A stretch of 64,000 nt of DNA from the NCBI GenBank assembly GCA_040389385.1, contig JAZKAA010000003.1:39295-103294 (forward strand), given 5' to 3'. The notes below the pieces were generated by a model. The model was not told the DNA's origin. It did no database searches and saw only the letters and a program-made list of their open reading frames with translations. Made by a program: the position numbers and the translations under genes. The stretch comes from Patescibacteria group bacterium (GTDB taxonomy: Bacteria; Patescibacteriota; Minisyncoccia; Phycocordibacterales; SBAW01). Each line of letters starts with the position of its first letter. The stretch's first letter is position 1. Positions 9,489 to 59,246 of the stretch are shown piece by piece.

Positions 9489-10322
9489 GTGCTAAAGAAA
9501 AAGGTTATAGCTATCGTCGGGCCTACTGGCTCGGGCAAGTCGAGCTTGGGCGCGTATCTTGCCCATAATCTGGGCGGAGAGATTATTGCCGCTGACTCCA
9601 GACAGGCATACCGCGGCATGCGGGTTATATCGCGCGCCGACAAAGCCCACATGGTGGGCGTGGCCGACCCACGCCGGCAATTTAGTGCTGGCGAGTATGT
9701 AAAGGCTTGTTCCAGTGTTTTGCAAAAGACTAGAATACCAATTGTCGTTGGGGGTACCGGGTTTTATATAGACACATTGCTTGGGCGCATGGCTATGCCC
9801 GAGGTTGCTCCAAATAAGAAATTACGAGAGCAACTAGAACAACTAACAACAAGACAAATAGCCGCAAGGCTCAAAAAACTCGATCCTGCGAGCGCAAAGC
9901 GCGTTGACCTCAAAAACAGACCGCGCATAGTCCGCGCAATCGAAATAGCAAAAGCGCTAGGCAAGGTCCCCGCCCCTGCCCTCTCAACGCAATACAACGT
10001 GTTGTGGCTGGGGCTCAAAGAGCAGAAAAATCTTACAGCGGGCGTCGAGGCACGGCTCAAAGCAGGTATGGTCGCCGAGGCCAAAAAGCTCCGGTCTACC
10101 CTCTCCAAAAAGCGCTACGCTGAACTCGGGTTTGAGTTTGCATTGCTTGCAGATTATTTGGACGGAAAGTTAGCAAGGACTACCCTTGCTAAAGAGCTTG
10201 TACGAGGCGAGCAAAAATATGCCAAGCGCCAATGGCGCTGGTTTAAACGCAACAAAGACATCTATTGGATCAAAAACAAAAGTGAGGCTCTACGTCTGGC
10301 GAAAGGCTTCCTTTCGCGCTAA
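9489..10322 (+). CDS. miaA: tRNA dimethylallyltransferase
   Basis: 277 aa; P-loop GPTGSGKS followed by IIAADSRQAYRGM. Confidence 0.9.
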   Translation: MLKKKVIAIVGPTGSGKSSLGAYLAHNLGGEIIAADSRQAYRGMRVISRADKAHMVGVADPRRQFSAGEYVKACSSVLQKTRIPIVVGGTGFYIDTLLGRMAMPEVAPNKKLREQLEQLTTRQIAARLKKLDPASAKRVDLKNRPRIVRAIEIAKALGKVPAPALSTQYNVLWLGLKEQKNLTAGVEARLKAGMVAEAKKLRSTLSKKRYAELGFEFALLADYLDGKLARTTLAKELVRGEQKYAKRQWRWFKRNKDIYWIKNKSEALRLAKGFLSR

Positions 10323-10335
10323 GATAAACGCGTTT

Positions 10336-10406
10336 GGGCGATTGGTGAAATGGTATCACAACGGTCTCCAAAACCGTTAGTGGAGGTTCGATTCCTCCAT
10401 CGCCCG
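10336..10406 (+). tRNA. tRNA-Trp (anticodon CCA), no encoded 3' CCA
   Basis: Acceptor GGGCGAT/ATCGCCC, anticodon stem ACGGT/ACCGT with loop CTCCAAA, T-arm GGAGG-TTCGATT-CCTCC. Confidence 0.85.
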
Positions 10407-31390: not shown

Positions 31391-31429
31391 GCGCAGTATT
31401 TTAACAAATAAAAAAGAAAAGTCCCGCTC

Positions 31430-31633
31430 CTAAGAGCGGGCCGGCGTCAGATATCCAAAATACTGATTCTCCCAGTAGAGCGCTACCGGGGGCACAAACA
31501 TCCAAAAACAAATCGCAGCGTTTGCCGCAGCCATTGCAGTCCATGCCTCCAGGTCGCGGACGGGAGTCGCCTGCTGACGCTTGGTAGCTCGGTCAAAGAT
31601 CTGCACCGCTTCTTGCCCGTGTGTACTGACCAT
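31430..31633 (-). CDS. possible small tail-anchored membrane protein (67 aa; sub-ORF of track ORF 31430..31795)
   Basis: ATG with GGGAGAG upstream; C-terminal hydrophobic AAANAAICFWMFVPPVALYW; lies in the 250-nt gap between the HAD and HIT genes. Confidence 0.3.
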   Translation of the reverse strand: MVSTHGQEAVQIFDRATKRQQATPVRDLEAWTAMAAANAAICFWMFVPPVALYWENQYFGYLTPARS

Positions 31634-31644
31634 AGCATCTCTCC

Positions 31645-32244
31645 CTAAAAGCCCCTCCCCAACTGTAGCACCTGTTTTAAATCCTCTACCGAGGTAAACA
31701 AAAACGCGTTGATGCCGACCGAGCGGGCGGAGTCGACATTGTGCTGCATGTCGTCCCAAAACCACATCTCTTGGGGCGTGTAGCGCCTCTCCCATCGCTT
31801 GATAATTTCCTTAAAAAACTCCGGTTGCGATTTGGTATAGCCCAAGTCGCACGCAAACCAGGCACCGTTAAGCCGCCCGAGCAACTTTTGCACTATATAT
31901 TCGCTGCGGTATACCTCCTGGTCGCTTGCGAGATAGCACTCCGTTCCCTGTTTTTGCAGTTCTTTCGTTACAGCCAAAACCTCCTCGTCTAACTCTGTGT
32001 CGTTGCTAAACCACCACTCCAGATACTCCTCCACCGACTTAGGCCAGCCCCATGCGGGCAAACGTTTAGCCAGCTCCTCTTTCAAATCCGCTTTGCCTCG
32101 TGTACAGAGTTTGAACTCATTTTTAAAAAACGTCTCCACCTCCTCTCTCGGTGCGCCGTACTCGCGGCAAAACCGCTCGCTAAAGTACTCGGGCGATTTC
32201 TTAAATACAACCCCATCCGCATCCAGCAATACAACCTTTTTCAT
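31645..32244 (-). CDS. HAD-superfamily hydrolase (start adjusted to MKKVVLLDADGVVF)
   Basis: HAD motif I DxDGV (LLDADGVVF); alpha/beta core; the track ORF started at a TTG 7 codons upstream. Confidence 0.75.
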   Translation of the reverse strand: MKKVVLLDADGVVFKKSPEYFSERFCREYGAPREEVETFFKNEFKLCTRGKADLKEELAKRLPAWGWPKSVEEYLEWWFSNDTELDEEVLAVTKELQKQGTECYLASDQEVYRSEYIVQKLLGRLNGAWFACDLGYTKSQPEFFKEIIKRWERRYTPQEMWFWDDMQHNVDSARSVGINAFLFTSVEDLKQVLQLGRGF

Positions 32245-32257
32245 ATAGCCATTATTA

Positions 32258-32533
32258 CTATTCAAGCTTTTTGCAAAATACTTGAATAACTTCTGCGCGG
32301 GCAGTTAATTTGTGCCGTACATTTAATCCATCAGAACGCTTCAGAACAAGTCCGGCAATTGCCATTTTGCGCAAATGGTCCGAGATGTTGAAATAGCTAC
32401 TCCCTAATCGCTCCGCTATTTCATCCACAGCAAGCTCGGGCTCCTTTTTGAGTACATCCAAAATTTCAATCCGCCGATGGTTGGCAAATCCTTTGACTAT
32501 CCGCTCTAGCTTTCTGTACTCGTTTGGTTTCAT
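32258..32533 (-). CDS. ArsR/SmtB-family winged-helix transcriptional regulator
   Basis: 91 aa; HRRIEILDVLKKEPELAVDEIAERLGSSYFNISDHLRKMAIAGLV, the classic ArsR HTH. Confidence 0.8.
   Translation of the reverse strand: MKPNEYRKLERIVKGFANHRRIEILDVLKKEPELAVDEIAERLGSSYFNISDHLRKMAIAGLVLKRSDGLNVRHKLTARAEVIQVFCKKLE
32261..32286. promoter_or_regulatory. 26-bp palindromic operator copy 1 (TTCAAGCTTTTTGCAAAATACTTGAA); overlaps the ArsR C-terminal codons and sits just upstream of the HAD gene start
   Basis: Read directly; near-perfect inverted repeat. Confidence 0.55.
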
Positions 32534-32558
32534 TCAAGTATTTTGCAAAATGCTTGAA
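32533..32558. promoter_or_regulatory. 26-bp palindromic operator copy 2 (TTCAAGTATTTTGCAAAATGCTTGAA) abutting the ArsR start codon
   Basis: Reverse complement of copy 1 with one mismatch. Confidence 0.55.
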
Positions 32559-32567
32559 TTAATACTA

Positions 32568-32834
32568 CTACACTTTAGTGAAGCGGGCGATTTGGGTGCC
32601 TTGCCATTCGACCAGCTCGGCCCACTCGCGGAGCGGGCGGGTAAAGTAGGGCGCGCCGGGGCCGGGGTACATAGGCTCGTACACCACCATCCACTCGTTG
32701 TCGTTGGAGTGCAGCGCAAGTAGCACCACTTTGTAGCTGTCACCTTTGTAATGCCTATATGCCTCCTCCGCCTTTGGCGCATCTGCAGGCAGTAGCGGCA
32801 CTAAGTCTCCCTTACTCATCGCTTGAGTATACAA
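32568..32834 (-). CDS. DUF1653-like small protein (88 aa)
   Basis: YRHYKGDSYKVVLLALHSNDNEWMVVYEPMY...TRPLREW resembles the DUF1653 signature. Confidence 0.55.
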   Translation of the reverse strand: MYTQAMSKGDLVPLLPADAPKAEEAYRHYKGDSYKVVLLALHSNDNEWMVVYEPMYPGPGAPYFTRPLREWAELVEWQGTQIARFTKV

Positions 32835-32861
32835 ACAAAAAGCCCGCTCTGTTGATCGGGA

Positions 32862-33613
32862 CTAACCGTCTGGATATGTCCGGATTGCCTCAAACTTACA
32901 CGCGTCAAGGATGTCCCGCTCATCCGGCTTGACTAGCCAGTGAGCGGGGCGATTGCGAATAGGCCGCAGTGTGTCGTTGGACAAACGCCGTAAGACATCC
33001 ACCTGGAGCGCGTGCTCTTGCCGCAGTATGCGGCGCTTGAGCCCCTTTGGAGTATCCACTTTTGTACGGTCGTTGATGTCGACACGCCTAACACCAAGTA
33101 CCTCGCCCCGGTCGAGCTCACCGACCCGATGCGCGACGGCCTCGGTCCAGTAATTGCGCTCCACCCTGCGACAAAAAAGTATTGCGGTCTGCATCACACG
33201 GCGCCCATGCATACCCTTGCCACCATAGTCATAACCGGGTGGTGCTTTTGGATCGAGACAGCCCGGATGCTGGTTGACCGACATATTGCGGAAGTGCTTT
33301 GCAACCGCGTCCGGGGTCAGCGGCAACAGGCCATACTGCCCCAAAAATTGATGCCGTACCTTTTGCAGTTGGTGAGGATAAAGTCGGCGAGCATGTCCGG
33401 GTCTTTGGAGTAGCCCTTGGGATACACCAAGATGCGCTCGCGCGGGACCCCCTCCTCCTGCATCAAGCTGATGAGCCCGGCCTTTTCCGAACTGGCAAAC
33501 ACCAGGCCAATCTGGACCTTGGGCAACCGCCCATCCTTGGTGGCGCGCTGGATAGTCGCCATCGTCGTACCGCCGCCACTGCCGGCGACAGCCGCATTAA
33601 TACTGATCATGGT
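32862..33613 (-). pseudogene. purN: phosphoribosylglycinamide formyltransferase (PurN/formyl-transferase family)-like gene split by a 1-nt frameshift in a homopolymer run (ORFs 33317..33652 and 32862..33344)
   Basis: N-part MISINAAVAGSGGGTTMATIQ...VQIGLVFASS matches the PurN N-terminus (iavliSGsGsNl...). C-part LAGYGLLPLTPDAVAKHFRNMSVNQHPG...EAVAHRV...DT...L..RIL..EHAL matches the PurN core. Frames switch at plus-strand run ccccaaaaatt (~33339-33349). Confidence 0.55.
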
Positions 33614-33683
33614 GCAGTCCTCTCTTCCGTAGACAAACCGATCCGCCCCCACCTTACTGCATCATGCGCAGTAGTTCAAATTT

Positions 33684-33707
33684 AGGTACGTACATAATTA
33701 CGTACTT
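33684..33707. repeat. two phased direct repeats AGGTACGTACAT / AATTACGTACTT (12-nt period) upstream of the purN-like operon
   Basis: Read directly; similar element at 40822-40857. Confidence 0.5.
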
Positions 33708-33712
33708 TTGCT

Positions 33713-33740
33713 ATGCTAGTGTTTTGCAAAACACTAGCAT
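33713..33740. promoter_or_regulatory. 28-bp perfect palindrome ATGCTAGTGTTTTGCAAAACACTAGCAT sharing the GT-TTTTGCAAAA-AC core with the ArsR operators
   Basis: Read directly; ~60-90 nt upstream of the purN-like gene start. Confidence 0.5.
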
Positions 33741-33933
33741 AAGGAAATTATGAGCTCCAAAATATTGTCTTTAAAAATGAAACTACAACGTCAATAATAT
33801 CCACCTTCGGATTGCGATACACTATCAGACCAAAAGCTATCCCGAGGAAAAGTAAAATAACTATAAAAGTTATATTCATGCCATTACTCTACCAAAGAAA
33901 AAGCCCGCGAGTAATCTCGCGGGCTACATCGGC

Positions 33934-34474: not shown

Positions 34475-34825
34475 TCAAGCAACCGGTTTTATCTGCCCCA
34501 AACCCTCTAACACCTGCACATTAGGGAGGGAGGCGAGGAAGGAGCCTGGGACCAACAGTTTGGACTTGCGGATGCCGGCGCCTATTATTACGTGCGCGGA
34601 GTCGACGACGGCTTTGTCTACTAATATAGGCCAGCTTGCGGGCAGGCCAATAGGAGTGATTGCGCCAAACTCCATGCCGCTCCCCTGCACAGCCTCCTCC
34701 ATCGGTGCAAAAGAAATCTTTTTGGTGCCAAGCACGTCGCGCACAAGGCCGTTAACATCCGCGCGCGTTGTCGCGAGTATTACGCAAGCAACGTACTGCA
34801 CCTCCTCTATTTTTCTTTGTCCCAA
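34475..34825 (-). CDS. YbaK/ProX-like aminoacyl-tRNA deacylase domain protein (short)
   Basis: GAITPIGLPASWPILVDKAVVDSAHVIIGAGIRKSKLLV resembles the YbaK/ProRS-editing fold. Confidence 0.45.
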   Translation of the reverse strand: MGQRKIEEVQYVACVILATTRADVNGLVRDVLGTKKISFAPMEEAVQGSGMEFGAITPIGLPASWPILVDKAVVDSAHVIIGAGIRKSKLLVPGSFLASLPNVQVLEGLGQIKPVA

Positions 34826-53853: not shown

Positions 53854-53926
53854 TGCGCGGTTAGCTCAGTTGGTAGAGCGTTTCTTTGACGTAGAAAAGG
53901 CCATAGGTTCGAATCCTATACCGCGC
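53854..53926 (+). tRNA. tRNA-Val (anticodon GAC), no encoded CCA
   Basis: GCGCGGTTAGCTCAGTTGGTAGAGC, anticodon arm TTTCT-TTGACGT-AGAAA, T-arm ATAGG-TTCGAAT-CCTAT. Confidence 0.85.
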
Positions 53927-53930
53927 ACAC

Positions 53931-54971
53931 ATGAGAATTTTAGCGTTTGAGACCTCGTGCGACGAAACGGGCATTGCCCTTGTATCCGGCGAAAAGTCCG
54001 GAGACGGTTTTGTGTTTAAAACAGAACATGCCGCTCTTTTGAGCCAGGCTGCGCTCCACGCCGAGTACGGCGGCGTGTACCCCAACTTGGCCAAGCGCGA
54101 GCACGAAAAGAATTTGCCCATTTTGTACCGCGAGTTTGCGGATATGCCATGCGACGCTGTGGCCGTAACGGTGGGCCCGGGGCTCGAGCCCGCGCTGTGG
54201 CAGGGTGTGGGGTTTGCCAAGCGCGTAGCCGCGGAGCGCGGCGTGCCCCTACTCCCCATCAACCACATGGAGGCACACCTGATATCATCTTTGGCTCAAT
54301 CAAACGTTTTGCAAAACGTTAGAATGTCAGTACTTGCTCTACTTATATCCGGAGGGCATACGGAGTTTGTGCATATGCCGGAGTGGTTTAGCTACAAAAT
54401 AATCGGCCAGACTCTCGACGATGCCGCGGGCGAGTGTTTTGATAAGGTAGCTCGAATGTTGGGGTTGAAATACCCTGGTGGACCCGAGATTTCAAGAATA
54501 GCCAAAACAGCGAAATCAAAATCAACTATCGCACTCCCCCGCCCGATGCTCAGCTCCGGCACATGCGACGTATCTTTTTCTGGTTTAAAAACCGCCGCGC
54601 TGTACGCCTTGCGCGACCGCGGCGGCATACAAACACTCTCGGCCGACGAGATAGCCGCCTTTGCGGCGGAGTTTGAGGAGGCGGTGGGCGACGTCTTTGT
54701 GCACAAAACCCGCGCGGCGCTCGAGCAAACAGGCGCACAGACATTTGTTATAGGAGGGGGTGTGGCAGCCAACACTTACCTGCGCGAGCGGCTACAAAAA
54801 TTGGTGAGCGAAGAATTTTCTGATGTAGAGTTCCGCCTCCCCGACCCGGCAATAACAGGCGACAACGCCGTAATGATTGCCCAGTGTGCCCTCGCCCGCG
54901 CCCTCTCGGGCAAAAACGACATCTCTCCCATCGACCTAAAAGCCGTTGGAAATCTTTCTATAGCAAGCTAG
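53931..54971 (+). CDS. tsaD: tRNA N6-adenosine threonylcarbamoyltransferase TsaD
   Basis: MRILAFETSCDETGIALV...; HxxAH metal site (NHMEAHL); ASKH fold. Confidence 0.9.
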   Translation: MRILAFETSCDETGIALVSGEKSGDGFVFKTEHAALLSQAALHAEYGGVYPNLAKREHEKNLPILYREFADMPCDAVAVTVGPGLEPALWQGVGFAKRVAAERGVPLLPINHMEAHLISSLAQSNVLQNVRMSVLALLISGGHTEFVHMPEWFSYKIIGQTLDDAAGECFDKVARMLGLKYPGGPEISRIAKTAKSKSTIALPRPMLSSGTCDVSFSGLKTAALYALRDRGGIQTLSADEIAAFAAEFEEAVGDVFVHKTRAALEQTGAQTFVIGGGVAANTYLRERLQKLVSEEFSDVEFRLPDPAITGDNAVMIAQCALARALSGKNDISPIDLKAVGNLSIAS

Positions 54972-58907: not shown

Positions 58908-59147
58908 TTAGGCCGCGATACCGAGTTTGCCCGCTACCCTCTCCCTGTCAAACCCGACCATCACCGAGTCGCCCACCACTATAACCGGCACGCCAAGCTG
59001 GCCCGTCATCTGTATCATCTCCTCGCGCTTAGCCGCGTCGGTGGAGACATCGTAGGCGGTAAATTGGACGTTTTTCTCCGCAAAGAAGTCCTTGGCAAGC
59101 TTGCAGAAGTGGCACGTGGGTGTGGTGTATATGGTTACGTTTTGCAT
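58908..59147 (-). CDS. glutaredoxin-like protein (NrdH/Grx family; start adjusted to MQNVTIY)
   Basis: 79 aa; TIYTTPTCHFCKLAKDFF (CxxC), GQLGVPVIVVGD (cis-Pro region). Confidence 0.75.
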   Translation of the reverse strand: MQNVTIYTTPTCHFCKLAKDFFAEKNVQFTAYDVSTDAAKREEMIQMTGQLGVPVIVVGDSVMVGFDRERVAGKLGIAA

Positions 59148-59172
59148 AAACCTATTATACCAAATATTGGAT

Positions 59173-59246
59173 TGGTGCGGAATGGGAGAATCGAACTCCC
59201 GTCCTATGCTTGGGAAGCACATGTTTTGCCACTAAACTAATTCCGC
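59173..59246 (-). tRNA. tRNA-Gly (anticodon CCC), CCA encoded
   Basis: Revcomp GCGGAATTAGTTTAGTGGCAAAAC A TGTGC-TTCCCAA-GCATA ... GGGAG-TTCGATT-CTCCC ATTCCGCACCA. Confidence 0.8.

Follow-up and report, generated by a model that had tools for sequence, protein, structure and literature searches.

Two copies of a 28-bp palindrome bracket the gene for a 91-aa winged-helix regulator; the first overlaps the start codon and the second forms the coding end. In the sequence comparisons, the coding copy is a hallmark of the whole regulator family, and the two copies co-vary between genomes. The sites exist, are conserved, co-vary with one another and with the protein, are under selection at the DNA level and are dispersed. 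They are very probably the cognate sites of the regulator, and the reading we favour, as a reasonably probable one, is that they are operators of a self-bracketing, non-metal autoregulator of the ArsR fold with sites genome-wide. Binding as such, a repressing and not an activating role, a mode of action by promoter occlusion, roadblock or looping, and any effector are what we infer from the sequences.

Palindromic sites in the window

The window is the whole 64-kb stretch of DNA that was analysed. The core TTTTGCAAAA occurs in it five times against 0.12 expected, and none of 100 shuffles reached five; the extended palindrome pattern returned the same five places. When the window was scanned with a 28-bp weight matrix, these five sites scored from 32 to 45, the next best 14.3, and the shuffled maximum was 10.7. 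The next best hit, a weak and degenerate candidate, adjoins a tRNA gene (59176-59246). The first-pass annotation had described three palindromes around the regulator gene. All three are real and far above chance, with positions shifted by 1-2 nt; their number was set too low, for two more copies lie inside miaA and tsaD. The features are listed in Table 1.

The gene strand of the C site reads ATT CAA GTA TTT TGC AAA AAG CTT GAA T(AG), or IQVFCKKLE and stop, so that the site comprises the last nine codons of the regulator and the T of its stop codon. It has 12 of 14 palindromic pairs, and 15 nt separate its end from the ATG of the HAD gene at 32244. The U site starts 8 nt past the DUF1653 stop and overlaps the regulator ATG (32533) by 2 nt, its last two bases being the A and T of that codon; at 27 of 28 positions it agrees with the C site read in reverse complement. 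Between the U site, which abuts the ATG, and the upstream gene, there is no room for a canonical promoter or a Shine-Dalgarno sequence. Site 3 lies 101 nt upstream of the ATG of the formyltransferase-like gene at 33610 and starts 5 nt downstream of a predicted -10 box. The outer arms of site 3 and of the miaA and tsaD copies differ in flavour from those of the U and C copies, and these three sites could therefore be bound by a paralogue encoded outside the window; no paralogue of the regulator was found within it.

The intrinsic terminator scan called none of the palindromes, though canonical terminators nearby were found; the stems of the palindromes are A+T-rich, fold weakly and lack a T run, unlike intrinsic terminators. 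The Rfam covariance-model search of the window returned only 13 tRNAs at gathering score and left the palindromes unmatched. A GC-skew scan for a replication origin detected no clear switch within the window.

Table 1. Palindromic sites, genes and predicted signals in the analysed window.
Feature	Position	Strand	Description
C site	32260..32287		28-bp palindrome; + strand ATTCAAGCTTTTTGCAAAATACTTGAAT
U site	32532..32559		28-bp palindrome; 13/14 pairs
Site 3	33712..33741		Perfect 30-bp palindrome; same core, different outer arms (ATGCTAGTG)
Copy inside miaA	9709..9736		Strong; encodes CSSVLQKTRI, directly before the conserved IPIVVGGT motif
Copy inside tsaD	54298..54325		Strong; encodes QSNVLQNVRM; 'AAC' outer-arm flavour
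Candidate copy	59131..59158		Weak, degenerate; weight-matrix score 14.3 (shuffled maximum 10.7)
Regulator gene, 91 aa	32258..32533	-	ArsR/SmtB-fold winged helix; ORF, profile and structure matches
HAD-superfamily hydrolase gene	31645..32244	-	Pfam Hydrolase, E 1.3e-6; weak NCBIfam HAD-IA matches
DUF1653 gene	32568..32834	-	Pfam PF07866, E 1.5e-18; directly upstream of the U site
Promoter-like site of DUF1653 gene	32855..32826		Predicted
Formyltransferase-like (PurN/Fmt-like) gene	32862..33610	-	Two overlapping ORFs: 33317-33610 and 32862-33344
Promoter-like TTTAAA-17-CATAAT	33775..33747	-	Predicted; adjoining site 3
Intrinsic terminator	31423..31440	-	Predicted; ends the DUF1653-regulator-HAD-small ORF unit ahead of the HIT-like gene

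The regulator and its gene neighbourhood

The regulator matches Pfam HTH_5 with 30.5 bits (cut-off 22) and HTH_20 with 27.2 (cut-off 27), as well as HVO_A0114; the NCBIfam HTH_metalloreg match stays just under its cut-off (52.2 vs. 55). Its PDB sequence matches include 2kko, NolR, and HlyU. The AlphaFold model (pLDDT 89.8) has an H-H-H-E-E-H topology with elements H3-30, H36-43, H47-59, E63-67, E72-76, and H78-90, which is the a1-a2-a3-aR-b1-b2-a5 winged helix-turn-helix arrangement of the ArsR/SmtB family, and its top Foldseek matches are YgaV, HlyU, SmtB, CzrA, CadC, and NolR. The ArsR-family label given at first pass is thereby upheld. More than 1000 homologues were retrieved, the best 120 of these with at least 67% identity, and the family is near-universal in Patescibacteria (Parcubacteria/Paceibacteria). 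No homologue was found among viral contigs, and a phage origin of the regulator was rejected. No paper linking Patescibacteria, ArsR-type regulators and these motifs was found among open-access texts.

The metal-sensing Cys/His residues for which a check had been proposed are missing: the alpha3 region (ELAVDEIAERLG) contains no Cys and hence no CxC motif, and the alpha5 region (TARAEVIQVFCKKLE) has no His, Asp or Glu array that could form an alpha5 site. The only Cys of the protein, Cys87, is encoded by the TGC at the palindrome centre, and Leu or Val takes its place in relatives with another centre. No sensor feature or sign of an effector was detected in the regulator.

The locus had been read as a dedicated purN'-DUF1653-arsR-HAD-HIT operon switch. 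Profile matches confirmed the DUF1653 and HAD labels, the HAD gene lying directly downstream of the C site. The purN' gene is split by a frameshift and shows only a weak, sub-threshold TIGR00639 match (E 3e-4); the HIT label was not confirmed, as the profile search of the HIT-like gene gave no family match, and the gene lies behind the predicted terminator. In other genomes, the genes that follow the coding copy encode RsmI, NUDIX proteins, glycosyltransferases, UDG, and helicases, among others. The genes around 48 orthologues are diverse housekeeping genes, and the coding copy persists even if the gene after it is far away or convergently oriented. With variable downstream genes, a terminator ahead of the HIT-like gene and a coding copy kept regardless, the operon switch is not supported. 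A role of the coding copy as operator of a conserved downstream gene was likewise rejected, the downstream genes being unrelated between genomes. In relatives, the next gene often begins 3-20 nt past the regulator stop.

Conservation and co-variation of the bracket

The regulator gene is bracketed by U and C copies in 65 of 78 orthologous loci, mostly with a centre-to-centre spacing of 266-341 bp, and the same bracket surrounds 32 further regulator genes in an independent, motif-seeded metagenome sample of 120 loci, 33 of which carry the regulator. The dual-use coding copy noticed at first pass is thus real and has its equivalent in these 65 loci. The C copies of the orthologues average 10.7 of 14 palindromic pairs, compared with 3.8 in other gene tails. 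At locus L100, whose coding tail has lost the palindrome, a copy sits directly past the stop instead.

Within a genome, the two copies resemble each other more than they resemble those of other genomes: the U copy shares 24.6 of 28 positions with the C copy of the same genome vs. 20.4 with C copies of other genomes, a value that none of 2000 permutations reached. Their central 10-mers match by type (TTTTGCAAAA in 13/13, TTCTGCAGAA, TTCTATAGAA with TTCGTTAGAA, and TTCCTAGGAA with TTCCTAAGAA). The centre of the upstream site predicts the residue in the protein tail, with G corresponding to Cys (41), T or a mixed centre to Leu (46), and A to Val (3); position 12 of the upstream half-site corresponds to Lys when it is T (38) and to Arg when it is C (52), with one exception. 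The start of the recognition helix co-varies with the site as well (SDHxRK with xN vs. SEHxRR with KT vs. ISAHIxKM). The co-variation classes largely follow clades, so that few independent events underlie them. Where paralogues stand in tandem within a single locus (L190/L174 and L094), each has copies of its own arm flavour at its flanks. Given a bracket kept in 65/78 loci and sites that co-vary with the recognition helix, autoregulation, as proposed at first pass, is the most economical reading.

The codons of the coding tail point in the same direction. Arg is encoded by AGA in 57 of 58 tail codons (17% in the rest of the gene) and Glu by GAA in 56 of 57 (53% in the gene body), ATC is used for none of 71 tail Ile codons (25% in the gene body), and the choice between TTC and TTT for Phe tracks the site type. 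Synonymous codons in the tail are therefore fixed to fit the palindrome, which means that selection acts on the DNA. AGA, which accounts for 5.5% of Arg codons in this 55%-GC genome, is used by both intragenic sites, in miaA and tsaD.

Upstream copies overlap the predicted -35 box or the spacer at many loci, which would fit a homodimer repressing its own promoter; anything from -2 to more than 60 nt separates them from the ATG. The idea that a canonical sigma-70 promoter keeps a constant distance to these copies was rejected, as the offsets are heterogeneous and follow no single register. The spacing of the U and C copies gave a helical-phase signal in the first set (Rayleigh p about 0.01-0.04 near 10.5-11 bp), which was not reproduced in the independent metagenome set (p = 0.63); helical phasing was discarded as evidence for looping, and looping is thus left without positive support.

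Dispersed copies

In metagenomes, most palindrome copies are solo and are located at gene boundaries of any orientation or within genes, so the description of three operators of one locus gives way to that of a dispersed family with about one site per 13-25 kb. The first-pass annotation had itself named a genome-wide repeat family unrelated to the locus as the alternative; the sites are indeed genome-wide, and the part that separates them from the regulator gene fails. Solo copies were counted in 38 co-directional, 17 convergent, and 5 divergent gaps (38.6, 12.7, and 8.7 expected; p = 0.22). Promoter-type enrichment was rejected because the gap orientations match the background, and without enrichment in divergent gaps a plain model of an operator at a promoter cannot cover the whole family.

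Coding DNA is strongly avoided, with 19% of the sites intragenic vs. 81% of the DNA coding, and the copies that genes contain in frame are always read in the only frame free of stops (SSILQNTRI). MiaA of other genomes carries a site at the same position, even where the site type has changed; TsaD also hosts sites in other genomes, and the palindrome was found inside Formyl_trans_N genes elsewhere. The recurrence of the miaA position in spite of the change in site type and the exclusion from coding DNA points to gene-specific control. The SA-to-RIP segment of MiaA is no longer here than what we take to be its length in E. coli, which indicates that the site arose by substitution and not by insertion.

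Proposed mechanism

The cognate site of the regulator would be the 28-bp ATTCAAGyATTTTG|CAAAATrCTTGAAT, with an inner and an outer inverted repeat. The 5' copy lies over the start codon here and over the predicted promoter in many relatives. The 3' copy within the last nine codons and stop encodes the end of alpha5, the C-terminal helix through which solved ArsR/SmtB proteins dimerise. A regulator dimer most likely binds both copies of the bracket and holds down its own synthesis. When bound, the 5' copy may prevent initiation or stop transcription that reads in from the gene upstream. The copy at the 3' end could cooperate with it through looping or a raised local concentration, or else keep transcription from leaving or entering the regulator gene. 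The same or paralogous proteins would occupy the scattered copies near the predicted promoter of the formyltransferase-like gene and inside miaA and tsaD. On intragenic copies, and on those in gaps between co-directional or convergent genes, the only possible action of a bound protein would be as a roadblock to elongation.

A wider reading is put forward tentatively: the proteins may form a phylum-wide 'self-bracketing' class of minimal members of the ArsR fold that sets general, site-specific transcription barriers at gene boundaries and inside tRNA-modification genes in the tiny genomes of Patescibacteria. It is conceivable, at less than even odds, that control by such barriers is of a global roadblock or insulator type and does not involve classical promoter operators. 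Just as provisionally, operator specificity might dictate the C-terminal residues of the regulator itself (Cys/Leu/Val and Lys/Arg) together with the codon choice. The tRNA-modification genes named in connection with the barriers are miaA, tsaD, tgt, truB, and formyltransferase.

Alternative explanations

The sites might instead belong to a chromosome-organising or centromere-like system, in which a nucleoid or partition-type protein comparable to AspA of pNOB8 or to ParB with parS occupies a few dozen sites, effects on transcription are secondary, and its own gene merely carries two of the sites. We regard this as unlikely. The best local superpositions of the model do include archaeal AspA (4rs8 and 5k5q; rmsd 1.0-1.9 Å over 69-75 columns), the sites are dispersed without preference for promoter-bearing gaps, and parS inside spo0J provides a precedent. 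However, the overall fold fits ArsR repressors equally well or better, and no recurrent ParA/ParB family, partition ATPase or other constant partner was found among the diverse neighbours of the 48 orthologues. Sites that avoid coding DNA yet recur at one position of miaA, and a strict two-copy bracket, which is what an autoregulator needs and a partition site does not, also argue against it.

An element acting at the RNA level is improbable. The palindromes would then be mRNA hairpins that signal processing or stability or serve as translational operators. The 5' copy would mask the regulator start codon, the 3' copy would sit on the ribosome-binding region of the next gene, and the protein would bind RNA or be irrelevant. 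The AT of the ATG within the U copy, the short distance from the C copy to the next start, both here and in relatives, and the position of almost all copies in presumably transcribed regions, with few in divergent gaps, fit such an element. Each of the five copies in the window can fold into a hairpin, that of site 3 with -17.1 kcal/mol (z = -5.5), but the other four (U, C, miaA, and tsaD) form weak hairpins of -6.4 to -8.5 kcal/mol, and Rfam contains no match. Arm mismatches of the C copies are biased towards G-T (79 vs. 25 A-C), whereas those of the upstream copies show no wobble bias (34 GT and 34 AC); the excess in the C copies arises because the Leu codon (CTN) fixes the left arm and the right arm follows the ATTCC/GGAAT variant of the genome. 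Selection for RNA hairpins, judged by a G-U bias, was thus rejected, the bias in coding copies being explained by codon constraints. Moreover, the sequence itself, beyond its pairing, is conserved across phyla at the palindromes, the distance between upstream copy and ATG varies, and ArsR-type helix-turn-helix proteins are a DNA-binding family, with recognition-helix residues here co-varying with the site.

That the palindromes are a selfish or neutral repeat family, similar to REP or Rickettsia palindromic elements, which has spread through these genomes, also in frame into genes, and with which the small gene is merely associated, is very unlikely. The copies are dispersed, mostly intergenic and present in all gap orientations, those inside genes keep to the stop-free frame, and a gene flanked by its own repeat recalls RAYT/REP. 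The upstream copy also often repeats non-symmetric positions of the coding copy (direct in 27 loci, inverted in 15), which suggests copying between the sites. Against this, the product of the flanked gene is a DNA-binding domain of 91 aa and lacks a catalytic domain, the copy number is low, the miaA copy, judged by the presumed segment length of E. coli MiaA, is not an insertion, viral contigs contain no homologue, and the site type co-varies with the recognition helix, paralogues keeping their own flavour.

The narrow model of the first-pass annotation, a metal- or metalloid-sensing ArsR protein with exactly three operators in one local operon, draws on three of the five window copies lying within 1.5 kb around the gene, on the ArsR-family membership and on site 3 at a predicted promoter, and is largely contradicted, with very little probability left to it, by the lack of metal ligands and a sole, unconserved Cys set by the palindrome centre, by unconserved neighbouring genes, by the terminator preceding a HIT-like gene of no matched family and by the copies in miaA and tsaD and the many solo copies elsewhere.

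Significance

Patescibacteria (CPR) do not grow in isolation and have few genes for transcription factors; to our knowledge, almost nothing is known about their gene regulation. The autoregulator reading offers a testable pair of a 91-aa protein and a 28-bp site found in hundreds of Patescibacteria genomes, accompanied by variants that differ naturally in specificity (among them TTTTGCAAAA, TTCTTAAGAA, TTCTGCAGAA, and TTCTATAGAA) and by matching changes in the recognition helix. The candidate target set repeatedly includes tRNA-modification genes. The locus is also an unusually clear case of overlapping codes: the site embedded in the coding end determines the choice among synonymous codons and even some of the amino acids, and it evolves in step with its non-coding counterpart at a distance of 300 bp. 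Should the reading as roadblock or insulator be true, it would show how transcription is partitioned in very compact genomes with minimal intergenic space.

Comparison with known systems

The closest parallels are SmtB/CzrA-type ArsR repressors, which use 12-2-12 inverted-repeat operators. They share with the present regulator the fold (Foldseek TM 0.66-0.73), the small size, an operator that is an imperfect palindrome of nested repeats, about 26-28 bp long and located at or close to the promoter of the regulator gene, and autoregulation, which is predicted here. Unlike them, the regulator has neither an alpha3N nor an alpha5 metal site, carries a second operator in its own last codons and is linked to no resistance or efflux gene, and its sites are genome-wide and partly intragenic. 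Of the proteins with solved structures, the non-metal ArsR-family regulators NolR, HlyU, BigR/SqrR, and Mb0332/2kko match best in sequence (E 2e-5 to 6e-5); they too are free of metal sites, and several are multi-target. In HlyU, BigR, and SqrR, a Cys pair forms a redox or persulfide switch, whereas the present family has no conserved Cys. None of these regulators is known to have an operator inside its own coding end.

A binding site within the gene of its binder is also found in B. subtilis, where one parS site of ParB lies inside spo0J itself, and AspA of pNOB8, a winged-helix protein of about 90 aa that binds a palindrome ahead of the operon encoding it, gives a good superposition with the model. 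In contrast to both, the gene here has no ParA or ParB partner beside it and two bracketing copies, and its sites avoid most coding DNA and recur at fixed positions of particular genes. REP/RAYT systems are similar in having a dispersed family of short palindromes and an associated gene flanked by copies, and Rickettsia palindromic elements in having in-frame copies within protein-coding genes. The differences are the low copy number, a miaA copy that arose by substitution, a palindrome type that co-varies with the DNA-recognition helix and the absence of a transposase, the flanked gene encoding a 91-aa winged-helix protein and not a Y1 (IS200/IS605-like) transposase as in REP/RAYT.

Repressor sites in coding DNA are represented by lac O2 in lacZ, gal OI in galE, and the PurR operator in purB. 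Auxiliary and intragenic operators of this kind either form a loop with a site near the promoter or block elongation, the purB operator being a roadblock, and for the C, miaA, and tsaD copies they are the precedent in mechanism. Those operators lie in target genes of one species, whereas the site described here lies in the 3' end of the regulator's own gene, is conserved across the phylum and appears to dictate both amino acids and codon choice.

Regulator and palindromes

The assignment of the 91-aa regulator, encoded in a Patescibacteria MAG, to the ArsR family in the first-pass annotation was borne out by Pfam matches (HTH_5 and HTH_20), the topology of the AlphaFold model (a1-a2-a3-aR-wing-a5; pLDDT 89.8), and structural superpositions; its score lay narrowly under the NCBIfam ArsR/SmtB cut-off. 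The model superposes on YgaV, HlyU, SmtB, CzrA, and CadC; with the centromere protein AspA the match is local. The closest solved structures by sequence search were the non-metal ArsR proteins 2kko, NolR, and HlyU. A check for metal-sensing residues found neither a CxC motif nor an alpha5 metal site in the regulator sequence, the sole Cys being the TGC codon at the palindrome centre, and no effector-sensing feature was visible in the protein. More than 1000 homologues were found, the best 120 of which are 67-80% identical.

All three palindromes described in the first-pass annotation are present, within 1-2 nt of its positions: the U site at the 5' end of the regulator gene, the C site at its 3' end, and site 3 upstream of a formyltransferase-like gene. 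The C site is indeed embedded in coding sequence, comprising the last nine codons and the T of the stop. Further copies lie in miaA and tsaD. Five occurrences of the 10-bp core were counted in the 64-kb window against 0.12 expected, and in a window scan with a 28-bp weight matrix the five sites scored 32-45 and all else at most 14.3. An unrelated second inverted repeat (GTACGTA-CATAAT-TACGTAC, 33686-33705) lies 6 nt from site 3, on the side of the formyltransferase-like gene.

Among the operon gene labels, DUF1653 and HAD were confirmed. The 'purN' label belongs to a frameshifted formyltransferase-like gene, whose family match is sub-threshold only, and 'HIT' to a gene that gave no match in family searches and is preceded by a predicted terminator. 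The frameshift is close to the run CCCCAAAAA, around 33340; the split could reflect a sequencing error, programmed frameshifting, or decay into a pseudogene. The regulator locus is flanked by two small ORFs, each with a likely membrane helix. Both site-bearing tRNA-modification genes, miaA and tsaD, are directly abutted by tRNA genes, 13 of which occur in the window.

Table. Palindromes and associated genes in the window
Feature	Position	Strand	Remarks
miaA copy	9709-9736		intragenic; encodes CSSVLQKTRI
tRNA gene	10336-10406		starts 14 nt past miaA stop
Small ORF, ~66 aa	31430-31630	-	likely membrane helix; no family match; followed by predicted terminator 31423-31440
Regulator gene	32258-32533	-	91 aa
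C site	32260-32287		gene strand ATT CAA GTA TTT TGC AAA AAG CTT GAA T(AG), IQVFCKKLE + stop
U site	32532-32559		final two bases are A, T of regulator ATG; starts 8 nt past DUF1653 stop
Formyltransferase-like gene	32862-33610	-	two overlapping ORFs, 33317-33610 and 32862-33344
Site 3	33712-33741		perfect 30-bp palindrome; ATG at 33610 is 101 nt downstream
Small ORF, ~42 aa	33752-33880	-	likely membrane helix; no family match
tRNA_edit gene	34475-34825		730 nt from site 3
tRNA gene	53855-53927		ends 3 nt ahead of tsaD start
tsaD copy	54298-54325		intragenic; encodes QSNVLQNVRM

Conservation of the bracket

The ortholog comparison covered 78 orthologous loci out of 80 genomes fetched. A palindromic tail (the final 27 coding bases and the first stop base, T) was found in 65 of the 78 (mean 10.7/14 pairs; control gene tails, 3.8/14), and the second, upstream copy in bracketed loci, where U and C copies flank the regulator gene, averaged 12.2/14 pairs. 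The U-C centre-to-centre distance was mostly 266-341 bp. An independent metagenome sample, obtained by a motif-seeded scan, yielded 33 more loci with the regulator gene, and the 32 measurable U/C pairs had an identical layout. The bracket also occurs in some Verrucomicrobia (L053, L058, and L063) and Planctomycetota (L070-L072, 65-67% GC) homologues, at 57-67% GC; L039, L045, L047, L057, L062, L076, and L077 are listed with the non-Patescibacteria homologues. In high-GC genomes outside Patescibacteria, the A+T-rich bracket is kept via rare TTA and AGA codons.

Neither copy occurs in a Chthoniobacterales subgroup in which the tail reads FLDKLA. The ORF runs 2-5 residues beyond a retained site in L104, L132, and L200, and in L100 (840-1229), where the tail VLTFCRTLS does not form a palindrome any more, a replacement copy lies ~25 nt past the stop. 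From the latter four loci, the conserved feature is therefore one site per flank, and the 3' site embedded in codons looks like a compact solution.

Selection on the palindromes and protein-site covariation

In the last nine codons, AGA accounts for 57 of 58 Arg codons (17% in the remaining gene), GAA for 56 of 57 Glu codons (53%), and ATC for none of 71 Ile codons (25%), while the TTC/TTT choice for Phe tracks the site type. In the genome of the window, Arg is encoded by AGA in 5.5% of cases and Glu by GAA in 23%; despite this rarity, AGA is used in the miaA and tsaD sites and GAA in the regulator tail. As judged from the sequences, selection acts on the DNA of the palindromes.

The upstream copy agrees with its own genome's C copy at 24.6/28 positions versus 20.4/28 for other genomes' (observed value reached in 0/2000 permutations). 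Central 10-mers of U and C agree by type in the orthologous loci: TTTTGCAAAA accompanies F-C-K tails, TTCTGCAGAA F-C-R tails, TTCTATAGAA with TTCGTTAGAA F-V-R tails, and TTCTYRAGAA F-L-R tails, and TTCCTAGGAA with TTCCTAAGAA form a matched pair. Therefore, the non-coding upstream site predicts the tail amino acids: a U-site centre of G corresponds to Cys (41), T or mixed to Leu (46), and A to Val (3), and at half-site position 12, T corresponds to Lys (38) and C to Arg (52), with one exception. The U copy often repeats the coding-imposed asymmetric positions of the C copy, directly in 27 loci (e.g., L023, L043, L052, and L060) or as the exact reverse complement in 15 (e.g., L078, L013, L002, and the window), suggesting that the two sites are repeatedly copied into each other or undergo gene conversion.

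Residues at the start and in the interior of the recognition helix shift with the inner repeat: GYxNASDHxRK is paired with ATTTT, NFKTASEHxRR with ATTCT, and KNISAHIxKM with a CTATAG centre. Tandem paralogues with genes ~1-2 kb apart (L190:5521-8046/L174 and L094:297-1749) each have their own outer-arm flavour, TTCTAAC or TTCTAGT; the recognition helix (RK or RR) and the wing also vary between them. Independent covariation events are limited because the patterns largely follow clades; nevertheless, the covariation is what a cognate protein-site pair would predict.

Dispersed copies and host genes

In the metagenome sample, the regulator gene was present in only 33 of 120 site-bearing loci, and 106 strong solo copies were counted. 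ORFs of at least 80 aa contain only 19% of the solo copies, against a coding share of 81% in the same DNA. Intergenic solo copies in co-directional, convergent, and divergent gaps number 38, 17, and 5 (38.6, 12.7, and 8.7 expected, p = 0.22). Every intragenic copy is in the single other stop-free frame, [HYC]SS[IV]LQ[NK][TA]R[IM]. Recurrent host genes are MiaA (three times in the metagenome sample, identical position), Formyl_trans_N (three times, identical domain position), TsaD, TGT, TruB, class-I tRNA synthetase, Ddl, and HhH-GPD glycosylase.

Many of 120 MiaA homologues have the TTTT-type peptide at the site position and others ILK[KN], encoded in L201 by a TTCT-type site, GTTCTCATATTCTCAAGAATAATAGAAT. 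Since this part of MiaA does not exceed its E. coli counterpart in length, the miaA site presumably arose by substitution, not insertion. Other Patescibacteria MiaA (P0130, P0135, P0141, P0151, P0155, P0192, P0207, and others) encode 'MIYH' at the position of the TTTTGCAAAA site in the miaA of the window; in L203 (miaA 10001-10843) the 'MIYH' DNA forms a perfect palindrome of 16 bp with no relation to that site, CTATGATATATCATAG. The spot seems to host some kind of palindrome in many lineages. A miaA with an internal palindrome adjoins parB divergently in L201 (1067-3050), L202, and L203 (7992-10843).

In a raw tally, tRNA-metabolism genes often flank solo copies (Trp/Tyr-tRNA synthetase, YbaK-type, TsaE, SpoU, and RsmI). 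A YbaK-type aminoacyl-tRNA editing gene (176 aa) lies between two copies, each at a distance of 11-15 nt from the start or stop codon (L110:1543-2155 and L189:1167-1779), bracketed in the same manner as the regulator gene.

Mode of action and comparison with known systems

On sequence grounds, the regulator family likely binds the palindromes, and the bracket likely serves autoregulation. Site 3 starts 5 nt past a predicted -10 box; many upstream copies coincide in part with a predicted -35 box or spacer, in no single fixed register, and the upstream copy reaches up to or into the ATG in the window and about ten relatives. Copies within genes and in co-directional or convergent gaps could act only on elongating polymerase, and a roadblock would fit all contexts, both regulator gene ends included. 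Looping between U and C would be possible; U-C spacing periodicity in the replicate metagenome set gave it no support.

A function of the palindromes as RNA hairpins, with which their transcribed locations and closeness to start codons agree, is disfavoured by the DNA-binding fold of the protein, site covariation with the recognition helix, non-coding copies without wobble bias, weak stems, and strong conservation of the sequence itself. A chromosome-organising system, for which the resemblance of the model to AspA and the precedent of the parS site located inside spo0J speak, fails to explain the bracket and the fixed miaA positions. A selfish repeat, which the apparent U-C copying in either orientation would suit, is unlikely given no catalytic gene, low copy number, and a miaA site that arose in place.

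In the open-access literature searched, no description was found of a conserved operator inside a regulator's own last codons, of protein-tail/operator co-evolution of this kind, or of dispersed sites including fixed intragenic positions, the three features that would distinguish the regulator system. The regulator also differs from the ArsR/SmtB metalloregulators in its lack of their metal sites. By fold and operator style (nested inverted repeats of ~28 bp), both common to ArsR/SmtB autorepressors, it is a member of this fold family that would work like its autorepressors.
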